Positions 2 through 8,414 of a stretch of 8,473 nt of DNA are shown one piece after another. The DNA is taken from the IMG/VR virus record IMGVR_UViG_2579778666_000005, one strand, 5' to 3'. This DNA comes from a virus (lineage: Duplodnaviria; Heunggongvirae; Uroviricota; Caudoviricetes). A program made the translations under genes and the position numbers. The first letter of the stretch is position 1; each line of letters opens with the position of its first letter. Under the pieces are notes generated by a model, which worked only from the letters and a program-made list of their open reading frames with translations, made no database searches and was not told where the DNA came from.

Positions 2-19
2 TAATGCCAGTCAGTTAAG
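2..19. repeat. IS4 terminal inverted repeat (end distal to the transposase start)
   Basis: taatgccagtcagttaag; matches the reverse complement of 1410..1427 (taatgccgatcagttaag) at 16 of 18 positions. Confidence 0.85.
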
Positions 20-1343
20 CAACTGACTGGCTCTTTTTCGGGGCTGTGGGGTATTTCCAGGGCCTCTCCTTTACCACTCTCGGGAAGGCCCTTTCCCTTC
101 TTGTCGGTAATTTCACAAGTTGTCCCATACTTGCAAGATCGCGCATCAGCTCCGGTATACGTCCCGGTGAAGCGCCCTGCAATGTCATCAGCATTCTCAT
201 CACCATTCCGCATGATTCTGAGAAACTCAGTTGATTCGGCCAGTAACCTTTCAGATGTTCCGCCATTTTAATCATCTGATATCTCACCAGATTATAAGCC
301 AGTAAGACACCCCACAGCTCTTGCTCCACAAGCTCCGGCTTTTTACTTCTCAGCGTCAGCCTGCTCCGTTGCATCGTCTGTTTTATCTCCCTGTATCCCA
401 GTTCGATTTCCCAGCGATGACTGTACAGATCCCCCATTTCTCCTCCGGGGAAGCGCATGGCGTCCGTCATCGACGTCAGCAGATGGCAGACTTTTCCTTT
501 GCGCGTCACGGTCAGCAGGCGGGCAGTCACTTCATTTCCCAGTCCCGGCCACTTTTTTCGTGCCTGCGGGCTGGTTTTCAGCTTCACCAGATGATCGCCT
601 TTACCCAGTTTTCTGATCTCTTCATATTGCGCTCCCTTTCTGAGAGGTATCATCCAGTGGCGGTGTTCTCCCGCCAGGCTCCAGGCATTTAACAGTCCCA
701 GTGAGTAATAACCTTTGTCCATTAACGTCAGAGTGTTATCGCCGGTTTGTTCTATAAGTTGCTCAGCAAGCTCATTTTCGCTGTTCTTCATCGTGCCGAA
801 GGCTGCAGCCGTCAGCAGATGGCTGGTCAGTTCCATCTGGCAGACCATTTTGACCTGCGGGTAGAGCGCCGGGTTCCCGGCATGTGTCTGGCGGGGGAAG
901 GCTGCATCGTTCTCTGGTGTATCCGGTGTGCGCCAGAACACACCATCGATGGCCAGCAGGGTCAGGCCGCACCAGTGCGGATGCGGCGTGGCGTTATGCC
1001 AGAGCTGCGCTGTTTTCGTGAACACGCGGCGGACAGCCTCACTTCCCAGGCGCTGGCGGGCCTGAATAACGGCACTGGGGGCAACGAAGGGGCGATTGCC
1101 CGGCAGCATGATGTCCAGGCGATTCACAATCTGGTGAAGAGGTTCTTTACGCTCAAGCGCCATGCCAACAATACACCAGACCATCATTTCGAGGGGAAGA
1201 CGGCGCTTGCGTAGCGTTACAGTACCTGATTCGGCAAGGCAACGAGAGATGAGTTCGGGGTCGAGGTAATCCCCCAGAGAAGTCAGTGGGTTACGCAGAG
1301 AATCGTAACGGGATACCAGATCAAGAGCCTGTCCAATGTGCAT
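15..1343 (-). CDS. insG: IS4 transposase (DDE family), 442 aa
   Basis: The track ORF 15..1361 begins at a TTG. The first ATG is 6 codons in (1341..1343) and gives [40 protein letters not shown]..., which is the IS4 InsG N-terminus as I recall it. Resulting length is 442 aa. Confidence 0.92.
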
Positions 1344-1409
1344 AAAAAAATCCGGAAACAAGTGAGCGTTTCCGGATTCTTACACAGCCACTGGATCGGT
1401 CAACTGATC

Positions 1410-1427
1410 CTTAACTGATCGGCATTA
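1410..1427. repeat. IS4 terminal inverted repeat (end proximal to the transposase start)
   Basis: Reverse complement taatgccgatcagttaag pairs with 2..19 (16/18). Confidence 0.85.
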
Positions 1428-1461
1428 CCTTCAAAGAGGCGGTTTATGTTATCCCATTGGA

Positions 1462-3105
1462 TTAAGATCTACATTCAACTAAAAGGTACACTAATGGACG
1501 TTCTGGCGTCCCATTCTTCTTTGCAACAAAAGCAGATATTTTGTGTTTTGCTATTTTTTGCTTGAGTTTTTTACATAACACTTTGTTTATATAACCAAGT
1601 TTCCCGCTCTCATGAACAACAGCTATAGCATGTGGATCAACCGGGTTATCCTCTTCAGGAACAAGCTTGACCAAATCACCGACCATTACTTTCGACAAAT
1701 CAAGCCCTTCCTGATAACGAGTTCCTGCCACTTCAAAAAGAAGCTCACCTTCACTATTAAGAATTTCTGGATCTGGCACCAAACAAAAACCATCGCCAGG
1801 TGATTTTGCTCCTGTATATCCTAACAGCGCAAAATCAGAGCCTTCAAATGGATGGGGGAGCAAATGTTGAGCCAGATACTCAGCAAAGTCTTTTCTTTTC
1901 CGTGGTGGTAAACGCCGAACAAACGGGTCAAGCACGTTGTTCGTATGTTCTTCACTTTTCAGACTAAATGCGGGATGTCCTGCAAACCCTTTCTCTTGGG
2001 CTTTAGCATAATCTTCTGACTGAAAATGGTATGTGAAGACGTAGTTATCCCCTTGCTGACGATCAATCTGACCAACAACATAACGAGTACCGCCTGTGGG
2101 TGGCTGCCATGTAAGAAGCAACCGAGTAGGCTCCATTATTCTGTTTATAGTACGCATATTTAGAATCAGTGATAACCTTAGGTATCTACGCCTCAATAAA
2201 CGAATCGTCCAATCCGCTCGTTCCCTAGTGAACGGCACATCGGAGCTAATTTCGCAAAGTGAATCTATCTTGTCGACCAGTTCCTGAAAATCAAATTCAA
2301 GTCTCCGGGCCAAGTACGCTTTTGACTGCTCATCAAGAGCCAAATCCTGTATAGAAGAAATATGACCTAATCGTTCATGCGTGTCTGCCCGATTCTTCCG
2401 CAAATGATGACAACCACGCTGTATGTATTCATCTACATTTTGATGGTTCCATCCTCTGATCCTCTCTACATACCTTTCATGCCCCAAACTAGTACCATTA
2501 TCGAAATATGGTGCGAGATATCCCTTCACTTTAGGTGGCGTTATGCCTGGTGCAGATTCAGGTACAAAAACAAAACCCCAATTCTCTTGGTGTCTATCAC
2601 TATTACCGATGAGCGCATCAAAAAGCAGCATATCGTAAAGCCATTGGATCCAGTCTGGAGAGATCAGGCCGCGGATACTAAAAGCCCTACAAATTAAGCG
2701 TAGATCAACAAGGTTATGGTGTCTTCCGGAAGAGTCATCAAAATCCGATATCAACACATGAAAAAAATCAGACGCATGAACAAATAACTGGCTACTTTGA
2801 TCGTAAAACCACTCAAGCAAAGCTCCATATTCGTATTCACCGTTCTCCATCATTCTTCGCGCTGGCAATGCTTTAGGAACAGGAACGCCCATAACATCTC
2901 CAACTATATAAGCAACGGTTTCCATCCAGTACTGATCGGGATAAGCATCTCTTGAGAGTTTAAAAAGATAAGGCCATTCCGGTTTTATCCCCTCAGGAGC
3001 ATCATTCGGTGACCAAAGCATTTTTTTATCCCTCGCTCCTCGAGGAAAAATGCCATGCTCATCATCTTTACGCCAACTAGTTACATCTATTAAATTGATA
3101 TCCAT
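1462..3105 (-). CDS. HipA-like (PI3/4-kinase-fold) protein kinase domain fused to a C-terminal HIRAN domain, 547 aa
   Basis: ATG start at 3103..3105, TAA stop at 1462..1464. Catalytic-loop-like motif LIGNSDRHQENWGF at about residues 164-177 (GNxDxHxxN, HipA_C-like) followed by APYFDNG at about 198-204 (HipA YD-like metal-binding motif). C-terminal NPVDPHAIAVVHESGKLGYINK at about 487-508 resembles the HIRAN signature (NPxDxNAI ... G..GY). Start lies 9 nt downstream of the preceding gene's stop, so probably co-translated. Visibly AT-rich. Confidence 0.8.
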   Translation of the reverse strand: MDINLIDVTSWRKDDEHGIFPRGARDKKMLWSPNDAPEGIKPEWPYLFKLSRDAYPDQYWMETVAYIVGDVMGVPVPKALPARRMMENGEYEYGALLEWFYDQSSQLFVHASDFFHVLISDFDDSSGRHHNLVDLRLICRAFSIRGLISPDWIQWLYDMLLFDALIGNSDRHQENWGFVFVPESAPGITPPKVKGYLAPYFDNGTSLGHERYVERIRGWNHQNVDEYIQRGCHHLRKNRADTHERLGHISSIQDLALDEQSKAYLARRLEFDFQELVDKIDSLCEISSDVPFTRERADWTIRLLRRRYLRLSLILNMRTINRIMEPTRLLLTWQPPTGGTRYVVGQIDRQQGDNYVFTYHFQSEDYAKAQEKGFAGHPAFSLKSEEHTNNVLDPFVRRLPPRKRKDFAEYLAQHLLPHPFEGSDFALLGYTGAKSPGDGFCLVPDPEILNSEGELLFEVAGTRYQEGLDLSKVMVGDLVKLVPEEDNPVDPHAIAVVHESGKLGYINKVLCKKLKQKIAKHKISAFVAKKNGTPERPLVYLLVECRS

Positions 3106-3114
3106 ATCTTACGG

Positions 3115-3666
3115 TTACCCAGCTAATGCACGGAAAGCAGCACTAACATAAGCTACCTGAAACTTTGCATCTCGAAGCGCATGATGCGCATCAGTAACAT
3201 TAATGGAAAAATTTGCCCTTACATCAATATTCTTAAGGCTTTTAGCTAGTTCAACGATGGTACGCACGTCTCGATCATTTCGAAAACGCCATGGGATATT
3301 TTGCGCATGTTTACGGTAAACCGCTGCCAATATAGCGTTATCAAAGCTTGCCCCATTCCCCCAAACTTGTACGTCATCGTTACTACGACTTCGTACAAAT
3401 AGAGAAAATTCTTGTAAGGCTTCATGTAAGTCAACAGCAGACGGGTCATTAAAAACCGCCCTTGCAGAATCGCTTTGTATCATCCACCACTGTAAAGTTT
3501 TTGGGTCTACAAAACTATTTTCCAATGCAGATGATAGGGTTATAACTCTATAAAACTCATCCCCACACTTGCCAGTCAGAGGCTCAAAGAACACAGCGCC
3601 GATTGAAATCAAAGGAGCATCCATTGACACACCTAATGTTTCTATATCGAGCATTAAATTATTCAT
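3115..3666 (-). CDS. DEDDh-family 3'-5' exonuclease (DnaQ/RNase T-like), 183 aa
   Basis: ATG at 3664..3666 preceded by a strong SD (ggaggttaa ATG). All three exo motifs are present: Exo I LDIETLG (D8, E10), Exo II GNGASFDNAIL (D109), Exo III HHALRDA (H161-x4-D166). Stop TAA at 3115..3117. Confidence 0.82.
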   Translation of the reverse strand: MNNLMLDIETLGVSMDAPLISIGAVFFEPLTGKCGDEFYRVITLSSALENSFVDPKTLQWWMIQSDSARAVFNDPSAVDLHEALQEFSLFVRSRSNDDVQVWGNGASFDNAILAAVYRKHAQNIPWRFRNDRDVRTIVELAKSLKNIDVRANFSINVTDAHHALRDAKFQVAYVSAAFRALAG

Positions 3667-3806
3667 TTAACCTCCACCCCAGACATAGCTCAGGGAAACG
3701 TAACCTATTGAAATAACGAATCAAGTATTTGTCACATTCTATACTAAAACATTCGAATTCCAAAACTTCAGCTTTTGCAACCCCTTACAAGTCAATTGAT
3801 CCATAA

Positions 3807-3826
3807 TACTGTATACATACACAGTA
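3807..3826. promoter_or_regulatory. LexA (SOS) box in the intergenic region between gene A and the exonuclease/kinase cassette
   Basis: tactgtatacatacacagta matches the E. coli LexA consensus TACTG(TA)5CAGTA at 18/20, with CTG and CAG separated by 10 nt. It lies about 140 nt upstream of the exonuclease ATG on the coding side. Flanking sigma70 hexamers are ambiguous: TTGACT at 3790..3795 and TAGAAT near 3737..3742 are both plausible pieces but not correctly spaced with each other. Confidence 0.7.
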
Positions 3827-3844
3827 CTACATTTGAAAAACAAA

Positions 3845-6121
3845 TCAAGGGAAATCATTAAAACCCGGCCAATCACAACAAGGCGGATAAACAAATTTTT
3901 TCATGTCATAAATAACTTCTGCCCCACGAGCCAGCGCCTCAAGCTCCCATCTCTGAGGCCTGATACCGTTCTGAGCAAGGTCAACGCGGATACGGGTGAT
4001 TTGCAATCGTTCAGACCGGGTCAGTCTGGCCGATGGTGCAATTTCATGCGGTTTTAACGGGCTTCCGTTTCTTTGCTGACGGTTTGGTCTTCTCAGGCCG
4101 TATTTTAATGCACCTCTGAGCGCCCTCACGACCTCCGGGTCATTCCATTCGATAACACCGTCATCAACCAGATTAAGCACTGCTGCGGCGTGCTCAGAAG
4201 GTTTGGGAGCCGTTAACGAAGTATCACTGCCGGTGAACTTTCCACAGTTATTGACAGGACTCCGAGGCGCGGCGATGCCGCTTTTTAAAGTCAAAGGCTC
4301 AACGACCGGAACTTTCGGCACAATGCGCCAGTCCGTCGTTCTGGTGATATGAATATGACGCGCGCCGAGATGCGGCGCGTAAATGCCGACCACTCTCTCG
4401 ACTTCTTCCTCGTACTCGTTAACGTCATCCGACGGGCTACGGGCGACTCTGACAGTCTGACAATCGCGCGGAACATTTGCCCCACCCTGCGCGCTGATAT
4501 ACAACGCAAAATCACCACTGTCTGCGGCAGCGCGAGCAGCCTCGACGCGTTCGTCAAACTCATCAGCAATACTGACGCCGCGAGGCAATTTGCGTAGTTC
4601 ACGGTAAGCCCCCATTGTCGGCAGTCCAACCGTTTTAAATTGCGGGATGCGCCACGTTGACGCCCATGCGGTAACAGCCGCGGCAGTATCTTTAAGCGGC
4701 TTACCGGTATCGTTATCGAGCTGACCATCCAGTGCATAGCCGTCGATATTTTTTGAAATGTATTTCGCGATATATCCCGCAGCACCGCCCCGGTTAAGGT
4801 GTTTTGCCTGAAAACGGTTTCGCGCGGCTCCTCTTTCGTCGCCATCCTCTTTGAGCGCATAGCGACGCATGATTTCAATAATCTGGTTACGCTGGCGTGG
4901 ATTACAAAAAAGCATCATATGCCAGTGCGGCGTTCCGTCGTGGTGTGGTTCAACAACACGCAAACCGTAGGCCTGTAAATCATTATCCTTGAATGCCGTG
5001 CGCATCAGGCTCCAGATACGGCAGAGATAACGCTGCGCATCCTTTGGATTAAATGCCTCATCATTCCAGCCGTGATTTAGCTGGACGGTTTTACTTTCGC
5101 CTTTTCTGACCTGACGTGTCGGGTGATACTTTGACGGCGCGGTCAGCGTGATAAACATCCCCACATCACCCTCTGCGGCAGCGTAACGCTCAATACCGGC
5201 GATGGTGTTCATCAGCTCCATCCGGCGAATTTCTGGATTAGAAATACTGCCCATCACCTTACTGATAAGGTCGATGCGCTCGCCGGTTTCCCTGTTTTCA
5301 AGGTCACACGATTTAAGAAATTCCAGATTTGCCTGGCGGCGCGCACGCACATCACGAATGGCATGTTTACTGGCATAAGGAGAACGGTCTTTATTGACCT
5401 CCCCGACAGCAATCAGTAACGCCTCATGCCAGCGCATACGCTGGCCTTTAAGCTGATGAGTCCACCATTCATCGTTAAACAGACGGGCAATGGCAGAATA
5501 TGCCTGCCTCGTGGTCATCTGCCCTTTACGGTATTTTTTCCAGTAGAGCGGAGAAATATTGAAAGCACGTGCAGCGCCAGCAACATGACCATAGAGGTGA
5601 GCCTGCGCCTCATCCGTAAACAGCGATTCTTTTTCGCCATGCGCATCCACCCAGGCATCGCAGAGTTCCTCATACATCATGAAAAGCTGCGATGAGATAC
5701 GGGCGGCAAACTTTTTCAGCTCCTTATCATTCATCCCCGGCAGACGCGCATAATGGTCACGCTCTGCCAGAAACAGCAACGACGCGTCGGTGTTCATTTC
5801 ATGGCGCTGATTCACACGCTCAATGCGCGGCCATAAACGACGCTGAAAAGTGGATGTGAGGAAATAAAACCCGTGCACCGGGCTTTTATTGCGCCGGATG
5901 TAGTCATAGCGTGAAGTAAACAGCGAGCGCAAAAAGTAAGGCAGGCGGTTAATCGTGGATAAAACACCTTGCACCTGACGCATCTCGTCACGTGTAAGGG
6001 GTCTTTCGCGCCCGACGGCCTCGCGTGGCGCGTTCCATGCATAAGCACCGGTAAACGTCTTACCGGTGCCTGCGGCAAATGCTGACGGAGGGACAAAACG
6101 CCCGGAGGCTTTAACGGCCAT
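3845..6121 (-). CDS. A: P2-type replication initiation endonuclease gpA (HUH rolling-circle Rep), about 758 aa
   Basis: HUH motif PHWHMMLF (codons for HWH at 4919..4927) and a double-tyrosine motif GYIAKYISK (Tyr codons at 4772..4774 and 4760..4762). N-terminus MAVKASGRFVPPSAF... from the ATG at 6119..6121 matches my recollection of P2 gpA. The track start at 6163 is a TTG that would overlap the upstream gene by more than 50 nt; I prefer the ATG. Confidence 0.88.
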   Translation of the reverse strand: MAVKASGRFVPPSAFAAGTGKTFTGAYAWNAPREAVGRERPLTRDEMRQVQGVLSTINRLPYFLRSLFTSRYDYIRRNKSPVHGFYFLTSTFQRRLWPRIERVNQRHEMNTDASLLFLAERDHYARLPGMNDKELKKFAARISSQLFMMYEELCDAWVDAHGEKESLFTDEAQAHLYGHVAGAARAFNISPLYWKKYRKGQMTTRQAYSAIARLFNDEWWTHQLKGQRMRWHEALLIAVGEVNKDRSPYASKHAIRDVRARRQANLEFLKSCDLENRETGERIDLISKVMGSISNPEIRRMELMNTIAGIERYAAAEGDVGMFITLTAPSKYHPTRQVRKGESKTVQLNHGWNDEAFNPKDAQRYLCRIWSLMRTAFKDNDLQAYGLRVVEPHHDGTPHWHMMLFCNPRQRNQIIEIMRRYALKEDGDERGAARNRFQAKHLNRGGAAGYIAKYISKNIDGYALDGQLDNDTGKPLKDTAAAVTAWASTWRIPQFKTVGLPTMGAYRELRKLPRGVSIADEFDERVEAARAAADSGDFALYISAQGGANVPRDCQTVRVARSPSDDVNEYEEEVERVVGIYAPHLGARHIHITRTTDWRIVPKVPVVEPLTLKSGIAAPRSPVNNCGKFTGSDTSLTAPKPSEHAAAVLNLVDDGVIEWNDPEVVRALRGALKYGLRRPNRQQRNGSPLKPHEIAPSARLTRSERLQITRIRVDLAQNGIRPQRWELEALARGAEVIYDMKKFVYPPCCDWPGFNDFP

Positions 6122-6386
6122 ATGAGCCAAAAGCCTCTGAACAACGCTTGCTGAGTTGCTCAACCTGCGCGTTTAAATCAGCAAAAGACTTTGCGCTTCC
6201 GGTCAGAATATCGTGATGCATCAGGCCGGAAACAAGCTGGCTTAATTTCGGGTAATAACCAACCACCGCCAGCCATTCCTGACCGGCGTTTTTACCGCTT
6301 TCCGCTCTCTTTTTCTCGTGGAGAATAAACTGGAAGCTGTCACTGGTAACGACATAACGTTCGCCAATTTCAATACGAATACTCAT
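6111..6386 (-). CDS. Small conserved early-operon protein, 91 aa; by position the P2 orf83 equivalent
   Basis: ATG start with a GGAG SD 7 nt upstream; ATGA start/stop overlap with the upstream ORF; its 3' end overlaps the gene A start. Function unknown. Confidence 0.7.
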   Translation of the reverse strand: MSIRIEIGERYVVTSDSFQFILHEKKRAESGKNAGQEWLAVVGYYPKLSQLVSGLMHHDILTGSAKSFADLNAQVEQLSKRCSEAFGSYGR

Positions 6387-7864: not shown

Positions 7865-8033
7865 AATCACAACCCCATCCACAAAAGCCATGCATCACGC
7901 TGTTCAACTGGTCGGTTATAAAACGCCTCTCGTACAGCGCGATTAAACTCTGGAATGAAAACCCACTTCTCACCGACACGGGCGTTCGGCTTACTTGGAT
8001 CACGAAGCTCAATAACTGGCAATTTATTCTCTT
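7857..8033 (-). pseudogene. 3' fragment (58 codons plus stop) of an early-operon gene truncated by the IS629-like insertion; possibly a cox-like first gene
   Basis: One minus-strand frame is open from the IS junction (8033) to a TGA at 7857..7859, giving KRINCQLLSFVIQVSRTPVSVRSGFSFQSLIALYERRFITDQLNSVMHGFCGWGCDYE*. It has no start codon in the prophage-derived sequence. The sequence does not match my recollection of P2 Cox, so identity is uncertain. Confidence 0.4.
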
Positions 8034-8087
8034 TGAACCGCCCCGGGAATCCTGGAGACTAAACTTCCTGAGAAAGAGGTAAACAGG

Positions 8088-8414
8088 ATGACTAAAAATA
8101 CTCGTTTTTCCCCCGAAGTCCGTCAGAGGGCGATTCGTATGGTTCTGGAAAGTCAGGGCGAATATGACTCACAGTGGGCGGCAATTTGTTCCATTGCCCC
8201 AAAGATTGGCTGTACACCGGAGACTCTGCGTGTCTGGGTACGCCAGCATGAGCGGGATACCGGAGGCGGTGATGGCGGGCTCACCACCGCTGAACGTCAG
8301 CGTCTGAAAGAGCTGGAACGTGAAAATCGTGAACTGCGCCGCAGTAACGATATCCTTCGCCAGGCTTCCGCTTATTTTGCGAAGGCGGAGTTCGACCGCC
8401 TCTGGAAAAAATGA
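8088..8414 (+). CDS. IS3-family transposase OrfA (HTH and leucine-zipper part), 108 aa, IS629-like
   Basis: [85 protein letters not shown]... matches IS629 OrfA as I recall it to within a few residues. ATG with an upstream GAGG/AGG. Confidence 0.9.
8406..8411 (+). other. Putative programmed -1 ribosomal frameshift slippery run (A6) at the orfA/orfB junction
   Basis: gg aaa aaa tga: the A6 run at 8406..8411 sits immediately before the orfA stop with orfB open in the -1 frame. This is the arrangement IS3-family elements use to make the OrfAB fusion transposase. Confidence 0.5.

Follow-up and report, generated by a model that had tools for sequence, protein, structure and literature searches.

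A DEDDh exonuclease gene and a HipL-family kinase gene behind a predicted SOS box as accessory cargo of a P2-like prophage hotspot

The stretch of DNA considered here, 8,473 nucleotides of a virus of the Caudoviricetes (IMG/VR record IMGVR_UViG_2579778666_000005) and referred to in its full length as the window, carries the remains of a P2-like prophage. Next to the replication gene A of this prophage lies a cassette of two genes, one for a 3′–5′ exonuclease of the DEDDh type and one for a HipA-like kinase of the HipL family. The cassette is variable accessory cargo of the hotspot between gene A (gpA) and the portal gene gpQ; its exonuclease gene is inherited together with the kinase gene, and a predicted binding site for LexA (SOS box) precedes the pair in several lineages. 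According to the list of open reading frames (ORFs), all genes of interest in the window lie on the minus strand. The cassette and its anchor gene comprise the following features.

3845..6163, minus strand: gpA, the P2 replication gene A, hotspot anchor on one side and outside the cassette (Pfam Phage_GPA, E = 2e-122)
3826..3807, minus strand: predicted LexA (SOS) box TACTGTGTATGTATACAGTA, matching the consensus at 18 of 20 positions
3763..3736, minus strand: promoter-like site TTGGAA-16-TAGAAT between gpA and the exonuclease gene (consensus scan, 9 of 12 matches)
3115..3666, minus strand: ORF of 183 amino acids, a DEDDh 3′–5′ exonuclease of the Rv2179c-like/T4 DexA family (PF16473)
1462..3105, minus strand: single ORF of 547 amino acids without internal stop, HipL
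2152..3105, minus strand: HipL residues 1–318, HipA-like Ser/Thr kinase core (PDC-M03A, motifs, fold)
1786..2130, minus strand: HipL residues 326–440, HipS-like domain following the kinase core (Couple_hipA, N-terminal half of PDC-M03B)
1465..1770, minus strand: HipL residues 446–547, HIRAN domain, a DNA 3′-end-binding fold (Pfam HIRAN, Foldseek)

The exonuclease and HipL genes are separated by exactly 9 nucleotides (3106–3114) on the same strand and lie downstream of gpA. A first-pass annotation of the window, made from the letters alone, had described two co-oriented, nearly contiguous genes directly downstream of gene A that are AT-rich relative to the prophage backbone. Both statements are confirmed by the coordinates and by the GC content, which is 0.39–0.45 over positions 1350–3900 as compared with 0.50–0.57 within gpA.

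The DEDDh assignment of the upstream gene product, likewise made in the first-pass annotation, is borne out by a match to PF16473 over residues 2–177 of 183 (E = 7e-57; 192.4 bits against a cutoff of 27), which is the sole Pfam match of this protein at E ≤ 0.1. In PHROGs, the protein matches the exonuclease family phrog_255, while NCBIfam yields a sub-threshold match only. The catalytic residues D7, E9, D109, H161 and D166 are unchanged across 18 homologues; the acidic pair previously numbered D8/E10 is thus actually D7/E9. A profile built from homologues retrieves the PDB chains 8KEL and 8KEN (227 residues, labelled ‘Exodeoxyribonuclease’; E = 7e-17), which we take to be T4 DexA. With PF16473 as its only Pfam domain, the window exonuclease carries no DEDD domain of the NrnC/RNase D type. 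Neither cassette protein has a helix-turn-helix (HTH) domain in Pfam, and the only gene upstream of the kinase gene in the operon is the exonuclease gene.

The kinase core of the larger protein matches the PADLOC profile PDC-M03A over residues 4–308 (E = 4e-31), whereas Pfam HipA_C remains below its cutoff (25.8 against 30.5; E = 1e-5). A Gly-rich loop (G23-x-R-x-K27), K49, the catalytic loop D170-R-H-Q-E-N175 and a D202-N-G motif are invariant in 22 homologues, and D170, singled out earlier as the catalytic-loop aspartate, falls within this invariant loop. A profile search of the PDB with the kinase core leads to CtkA (E = 4e-10). In the AlphaFold2 model of HipL (pLDDT 89, pTM 0.90), Foldseek matches the core to CtkA (E = 7e-11, TM 0.76), HipA and HipT. 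Since HipA_C alone is sub-threshold, the kinase assignment is founded on the PDC-M03A match, the invariant motifs and the fold taken together, and on these grounds the earlier description as a HipA-like kinase holds. NCBIfam contains no model matching the kinase, and its PHROGs entry reads ‘unknown function’.

With regard to the remainder of the protein, the first-pass annotation had correctly named a HIRAN domain besides the kinase but had overlooked the HipS-like domain in the middle. The latter is indicated by Couple_hipA at residues 343–437 (26.7 bits against a cutoff of 22.5 in Pfam) and by PADLOC PDC-M03B, which covers residues 325–545 (E = 1e-30). The HIRAN domain is detected by Pfam at residues 453–525 (E = 1.4e-10; 41.2 bits against a cutoff of 24.7) and by a PDB profile match to lp_0118 (3K2Y). 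In addition, Foldseek aligns the C-terminus of the AlphaFold2 model with the DNA-bound HIRAN domain of HLTF (4S0N, 5BNH; root-mean-square deviation 2.7 Å, probability 1.0). A single-sequence phmmer search of the HIRAN region against the PDB returned noise only, and the profile search and Foldseek were required for these matches. The 547-residue protein is thus by its domain order a HipL-family kinase, that is, a circularly permuted kinase of the HipA toxin type with predicted activity.

The start codon of the kinase gene differs between sources: it is placed at M29 (519 residues) in phage 899 (PV533660) and in Table S2B of Rousset et al., while RefSeq uses the start giving 547 residues. HipL residues 1–28 (3022–3105) include the invariant residues W11, D14, G23, R25 and K27, and the M29 start is almost certainly wrong because it would delete the Gly-rich loop. 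As read from the motif, this loop, FPRGARDK, appears to lack the serine that is autophosphorylated in HipA and HipT.

The architecture has a name: Gerdes, Baerentsen and Brodersen (2021, mBio, PMC8262856) termed it HipL and its split form HipI plus HipN (HipIN), described HipL genes as monocistronic operons and suggested a regulatory role towards the kinase for the HipS-like and HIRAN domains. The window protein has the identical domain order, with an N-terminal HipA-like core kinase devoid of N-subdomain-1 whose motifs start at residue 23, a HipS-like domain in its interior and HIRAN at its C-terminus. It belongs to the Gram-negative HipL subclade, and the function of the HipL family is likewise only predicted. 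The monocistronic trait, however, does not apply to the window cassette, where the exonuclease gene lies 9 nucleotides upstream and a LexA box precedes the pair, as it does in four lineages altogether. In PADLOC, the same domain content as in HipIN is described by PDC-M03, a candidate system that was never validated; the window protein represents a head-to-tail fusion of PDC-M03A and PDC-M03B, which are two separate genes in PDC-M03/HipIN. The PADLOC check suggested earlier returned the candidate PDC-M03A+B for the kinase protein, whereas the exonuclease corresponds to no PDC-M03 component. With HipBA and HipBST the window protein shares the kinase fold and the catalytic motifs, and its HipS-like domain is the counterpart both of HipS, a proven separate antitoxin in HipBST (PMC8262856), and of N-subdomain-1 of HipA. 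Unlike these systems, the window cassette features no HipB-type HTH antitoxin, carries the HipS-like domain fused after the kinase, and adds a HIRAN domain and an exonuclease.

The cassette has also been catalogued. Rousset et al. (2022, PMC9122126) list ‘DUF5051 + HIRAN’ at the P2 hotspot in their Table S5 under WP_001774096, the RefSeq accession of the exonuclease of E. coli Ecol_656, and in Table S2B a plasmid, pFR108, ‘Exonuclease + HipA’, derived from E. coli TA255. The window exonuclease is identical to WP_001774096.1 and to pFR108 protein 1, and pFR108 protein 2 is identical to the window kinase from M29 onwards over the portion of its sequence that is shown. The site of the pFR108 forward primer is found at window positions 3951–3970 and the cos-side end of the insert at 1444–1485, both with 0 mismatches; the insert spans window positions ~1428–3970, so that both the LexA box and the native promoter region were part of the clone. 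Without a sequence difference between the two, the pFR108 cassette is, as far as sequence goes, the same object as the window cassette. In the study by Rousset et al., the LexA box, the HipS-like domain and the HipL family are not mentioned, and the kinase is annotated from M29. The gene pair, which the first-pass annotation did not recognise as any named system, is therefore already named (HipL, the PDC-M03 fusion), catalogued and tested.

The interval between gpA and gpQ of P2-like phages is a defence hotspot (Rousset et al. 2022, PMC9122126). As the window prophage is a remnant bracketed by insertion sequence (IS) elements, the A-to-Q interval can be seen intact only in relatives: the exonuclease–kinase pair has gpA on one side and the portal gene gpQ on the other in the intact Escherichia phage 899, in Yersinia phage GMG73 and in E. 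coli Ecol_656, and the cassettes of phage 899 and GMG73 are 100% identical to that of the window. Among 5426 complete E. coli genomes, 1556 contain gpA at a coverage of at least 80%, and the cassette is present in 61. In four sampled prophages with a gpA that is 96–97% identical, the slot holds a HEPN protein, SIR2 plus an ATPase, an ABC-three-component system, or nothing annotated. The exonuclease is kept in none of these four (0/4), and its candidature as a P2 backbone gene was rejected on that account. The pair is variable accessory cargo of the cos-proximal gpA–gpQ hotspot of P2, in agreement with the earlier suggestion that it is hotspot cargo rather than fixed P2 core.

This distribution bears on the idea that the pair serves a core replication or life-cycle function of the phage, as its position right after gene A might suggest. 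The cassette does adjoin gpA, and a 3′–5′ exonuclease together with a 3′-end-binding protein could act on rolling-circle intermediates. However, the cassette is present in only 61 out of 1556 E. coli genomes with gpA, the slot is empty or filled with unrelated cargo in the relatives sampled, and the pair is also found away from any gpA. A core function is effectively refuted by this distribution and has to be regarded as highly improbable.

The two genes travel together. An exonuclease gene lies directly upstream and on the same strand in all fused HipL loci found on viral contigs (19/19; 57–100% identity), and the same pairing occurs in the genome loci L003–L006 of Serratia, Atlantibacter, Shewanella and a Pseudomonadota metagenome-assembled genome. 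It is kept in a second E. coli allele (allele 2), the exonuclease of which is only 58% identical, in the chromosome of Proteus mirabilis, where ahpCF and a peptidase gene flank it outside any intact prophage, beside an island with a resolvase and an AAA_13 ATPase, and, with a split kinase, in an Aeromonas veronii prophage between a tRNA gene and the integrase. Every examined fused homologue of at least 54% identity has a DEDDh exonuclease gene ~9–15 nucleotides upstream, and the exonuclease gene also precedes split forms at 41–42% identity. HipL in this clade is therefore not monocistronic, exonuclease and kinase being inherited together in five genomic contexts. As far as found, this co-inheritance has no earlier report, and it conflicts with the description of HipL as monocistronic.

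A few details of individual loci may be added. The exonuclease–HipI–HipN trio at L095:5100-5430 lies between a tRNA-like sequence, recognised by eye and probably an attachment site, and an integrase gene, which adds a third type of prophage slot. NCBI labels allele 2 as E. coli, and it occurs on many contigs; megablast of L083:5700-8300 against the 5426 complete E. coli genomes gave no match. In one allele 2 copy (L085:6565-9556), an IS3-family transposase gene splits the HipL gene into pieces of 200 and 335 residues while the upstream exonuclease is still called intact, a natural inactivation of the kinase.

The relationship between the two genes was followed in neighbour-joining trees, computed without bootstrap among the matches listed. 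The tree of 93 unique exonucleases places the 49 kinase-linked copies in two clades without any free member and the 67 copies without an adjacent kinase in a clade of their own. Pairwise divergences of exonuclease and kinase are correlated (r = 0.81). In the kinase tree, all exonuclease-linked loci fall into one gammaproteobacterial clade, and split and fused forms interleave. The simplest reading of these trees would be one old recruitment of the exonuclease followed by co-divergence and several losses.

The alternative is that two independent neighbours happen to adjoin: the exonuclease would be a scavenging or recombination enzyme like DexA or a defence nuclease like EcD, HipL a single-gene toxin kinase, and the adjacency meaningless. 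T4 DexA and EcD (‘HREX’) belong to the same exonuclease family as the window enzyme, with the DEDDh residues conserved, and both act alone on DNA, whereas the window exonuclease is paired with HipL; the preference for 5hmC may or may not extend to the window enzyme. EcD, an E. coli homologue of DexA, has been reported as a single-gene defence against T4 (Kang et al. 2025, NAR, PMC12153337), and 686 phage records, among them those of lambdoid, Stx and T4-like phages, contain a stand-alone member of the exonuclease family. The description of HipL as monocistronic by Gerdes et al. (PMC8262856) also speaks for independence, as do a HipL of Aeromonas salmonicida and the majority of HipIN loci, which have no exonuclease. 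Against it stand the 9-nucleotide gap without promoter or terminator between the genes, the occurrence of the pair in five unrelated settings down to ~41% kinase identity and the clean separation of linked from free exonucleases in the tree. Furthermore, a second, unrelated DEDD family is likewise tied to HipA and HIRAN genes in Gram-positives: in Actinomycetes and Clostridia, NrnC-like diDNases, specific for DNA dinucleotides, adjoin HipA+HIRAN genes about one time in three (Mortensen et al. 2025, NAR, PMC11706625). These clusters resemble the window cassette in that a small DEDD 3′–5′ exonuclease gene sits beside HipA/HIRAN genes on mobile elements, and a role in phage defence is suspected. 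The enzymes differ, the diDNases being NrnC-like and acting on DNA dinucleotides and the window enzyme being Rv2179c/DexA-like (PF16473); because the latter is not of the NrnC-like family, the pairing of an exonuclease with HipA/HIRAN genes appears to have arisen independently at least twice. Mere adjacency is accordingly considered unlikely.

The third element of the cassette is the predicted LexA box. TACTGTGTATGTATACAGTA deviates from the E. coli consensus TACTG(TA)5CAGTA at 2 positions, with a perfect CTG-N10-CAG, and none of 200 shuffles gave a match as good (0/200), so that the near-consensus SOS box proposed in the first-pass annotation is retained. It begins 18 nucleotides past the gpA stop codon and 160 nucleotides before the exonuclease start. 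Serratia (L003), E. coli allele 2 (L083-88) and the Proteus mirabilis chromosome (L089-92) have comparable boxes 5′ of their exonuclease genes, which, together with the window allele, makes four lineages. Because it also occurs in the Proteus chromosome, where gpA is absent, the box belongs to the cassette and not to the phage backbone. In allele 2, as read by eye, a −35 element situated 17 nucleotides upstream of an extended −10 element, TGTTATAAT, is overlapped by the right half of the box, an arrangement that has the classical geometry of predicted repression. The near-consensus promoter of allele 2 is separated from the exonuclease start codon by a leader of ~230 nucleotides (L083:5738-6000). 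A consensus scan revealed no promoter or terminator between the exonuclease and HipL genes, and on the minus strand the stretch from gpA to the exonuclease gene contained no terminator-like site; since none intervenes, read-through from gene A during lytic growth may occur.

Taken together, a kinase that causes growth arrest or abortive infection, is gated by the SOS response and responds to DNA 3′ ends above a threshold set by the exonuclease can be put forward tentatively, with a probability somewhat below even. In an unstressed lysogen, LexA would hold the operon down; the SOS response would derepress it, and read-through from gene A in lytic growth could contribute. The HipS-like domain would keep the kinase off, as free HipS does with HipT. 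3′-OH DNA ends or short 3′-OH fragments could arise from phage replication, breakdown of host DNA or damage, and once they exceed the trimming capacity of the exonuclease they would be bound by the HIRAN domain, thereby relieving the block. The freed kinase might then phosphorylate an essential translation factor, which the examples of HipA and HipT would suggest to be an aminoacyl-tRNA synthetase, and growth arrest or abortive infection would be the outcome. In this scheme, each activity step of which we infer, the exonuclease would be an accessory threshold-setter rather than an obligatory antitoxin.

The genomic context of distant relatives is defence-like and in that respect supports the proposal. 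In Beta- and Gammaproteobacteria, split HipIN loci are found within type I restriction-modification (R-M) operons, with hsdS as the upstream neighbour in 8 loci and hsdM nearby in 7; the HipI–HipN pairs directly after hsdS and near hsdM are L018, L022, L024, L026, L032, L041, L053 and L062. HipIN loci of Gram-positives and Bacteroidota occupy moron slots of prophages, either in the gap between terminase and portal genes or after the lysis genes. In three prophages of the Clostridia type (L144, L165, L166), a distant HipIN lies between the genes for the terminase large subunit and the portal protein, a slot that is positionally analogous to the cos-proximal P2 hotspot. The Aeromonas salmonicida HipL without exonuclease lies between a cI-like repressor gene and an integrase gene, and such a repressor–integrase slot is the second prophage hotspot of Rousset et al. 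(PMC9122126). Across ~75 exonuclease-less HipIN loci, the only recurring neighbours are hsdS/hsdM and a large protein resembling methyltransferases. These ~75 loci showed no alternative nuclease partner, nor, with the exonuclease hidden Markov model, did the prophage HipIN loci of Gram-positives and Bacteroidota, a diDNase-specific profile having been run on neither set.

Several observations weigh against an SOS-gated sensor of DNA ends. The first is the earlier phage test. Table S2A of Rousset et al. contains the validated systems and Table S2B the ‘additional tested systems’; pFR108 is in S2B and not in S2A, and thus tested and non-validated. The test involved eight coliphages in MG1655, and out of eight P2-hotspot systems cloned, activity was seen with three, namely DUF4238, a three-gene system and DprA-PRTase (PMC9122126). 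We infer that validated protection from these eight phages was not obtained with the very cassette of the window. The cloning with the native upstream region and the phage challenge proposed in the first-pass annotation have therefore largely been carried out already, and the defence or abortive-infection role suggested there is hypothetical, with a single negative test speaking against it. A plausible cause of the negative result is that LexA represses the native promoter, combined with the small phage panel; in the same study, PARIS-1 was active only from an inducible promoter (PMC9122126). Second, literature searches (HipL, HIRAN plus anti-phage, PDC-M03, Rv2179c plus phage) retrieved no functional study of this system, and the papers found report neither kinase activity nor toxicity, and neither DNA binding nor LexA binding, for any member of HipL, HipIN or PDC-M03. 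Third, a LexA box is lacking in five related lineages (L004, L005, L006, L094 and L095), and in the window allele the sole promoter-like site is located ~45 nucleotides downstream of the box, without overlap. Fourth, the exonuclease is missing from lineages inside the gammaproteobacterial clade (L007, L009, L011-L014, L016 and L093), and all other clades of the kinase tree, including all more distant HipIN loci, are split and devoid of it; the trees concerned are, moreover, the unbootstrapped ones described above. Being absent from at least seven lineages of the same clade and from the distant HipIN loci, the exonuclease is not essential to the control of the kinase. Its recruitment, co-divergence and repeated loss make it appear a real but dispensable partner. 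Finally, the HipA equivalent of the HipS-like domain, the N-subdomain, is part of the active toxin, for which reason the HipS-like domain may not inhibit in cis.

Some of these points would also suit a dormancy module rather than anti-phage defence. Here, the HIRAN domain would read 3′ ends at stalled or reversed forks and at gaps, and the SOS-induced kinase would slow translation so that the lysogen tolerates genotoxic stress. The logic would be that of the LexA-controlled tisB or of HipA persistence, and the prophage would gain through survival of its host. The recurrence of the LexA box in four lineages fits this view, as does the failure of pFR108 to protect against phage. HipA-family kinases are the classical persistence toxins, and HIRAN is known from the remodelling of replication forks (PMC8262856). 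P2 hotspots hold non-defence cargo as well, including partition systems and toxins (PMC9122126). On the other hand, the same genes are kept in relatives without a LexA box, the split relatives reside in R-M operons and in moron slots typical of defence genes, and no tolerance phenotype has been reported. Dormancy is thus possible but doubtful.

An addiction module of the toxin–antitoxin type deserves the same scrutiny. In this case HipL would be the toxin and either the exonuclease or the HipS-like domain in cis the antitoxin, and the module would stabilise the prophage and sense nothing. A small gene upstream of the kinase gene mimics the order of hipBA, HipS is an antitoxin proven in HipBST (PMC8262856), and about a quarter of P2 hotspots hold maintenance (partition) genes (PMC9122126). 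The cassette is, moreover, undamaged and matches that of a live phage at 100% identity in spite of the decay of the surrounding prophage. Nevertheless, the exonuclease has been lost repeatedly while the kinase was kept, an HTH autoregulator is missing, an antitoxin fused to its toxin is not open to the separate degradation usual in type II systems, and in L085 an IS element interrupts the kinase gene but the upstream exonuclease is still called intact. Nor is there a sign of an RNA antitoxin, since an Rfam scan of positions 1300–4000 gave no RNA family and no inverted repeat of at least 14 nucleotides was found. Addiction appears improbable.

A more far-reaching version of the sensor of DNA ends would be a ligand-gated toxin kinase circuit. 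The HIRAN domain would sense 3′-OH ends or very short DNA as a danger signal, the exonuclease would act as a ligand-clearing antitoxin and LexA as a second gate. Ring nucleases, which clear cyclic oligoadenylates, offer a model for such a ligand-clearing enzyme. The circuit would have evolved twice, with Rv2179c/DexA-like enzymes in Gammaproteobacteria and with NrnC-like diDNases in Gram-positives, and the negative test of 2022 would be explained by LexA repression and the small panel. That all these elements hold together is rather unlikely.

Whichever reading applies, the HipL/HipIN/PDC-M03 family is widespread on prophages and in R-M islands, and no demonstrated function was found for it. 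The elements new to the present analysis are the co-inheritance of the exonuclease, the kinase-linked exonuclease clades, the recurring SOS operator and the Gram-positive parallel of diDNases with HipIN. Three of these are handles that earlier work did not use, namely the SOS operator, which may have silenced the clone, the co-inherited exonuclease and the diDNase parallel. If DNA ends are indeed sensed, a toxin kinase of the classical persistence type would be linked to the sensing of nucleic acids as danger signals; if that model is wrong, the cassette is one of many hotspot cargos of unassigned role.

The DNA around the cassette and gpA contains the following further features.

15..1361, minus strand: IS4 transposase (Nterm_IS4 and DDE_Tnp_1 in Pfam)
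1428..1442, minus strand: rest of a rho-independent terminator hairpin, left arm and loop CCGCCTCTTTGAAGG, the right CGG arm and the T-run being replaced by the IS4 end
Beyond gene A to ~8022, minus strand: small P2 early genes (ORF list)
From 8088, minus strand: IS3-family orfA (ORF list)

The edge of the cassette meets IS4 at 1427/1428, where the element interrupts the terminator hairpin of the cassette and where homology to the intact phage 899 starts (window position 1428). At the terminator, the pFR108 insert reads AAAAAAAAAACCGCCTTCAAAGAGGCGGTTTATG, whereas the window runs on as TAATGCCGATCAG, the end of IS4. IS4 has taken the place of gpQ in the window, and the prophage DNA of the cos, portal and late-gene side is gone, leaving a remnant of ~6.6 kb between two IS elements. 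At the opposite end (7867–8414), beside the IS3-family orfA, a Cox-like ORF (7867..8022) of 51 residues, as compared with ~90 in intact relatives, appears to be truncated at its N-terminus.

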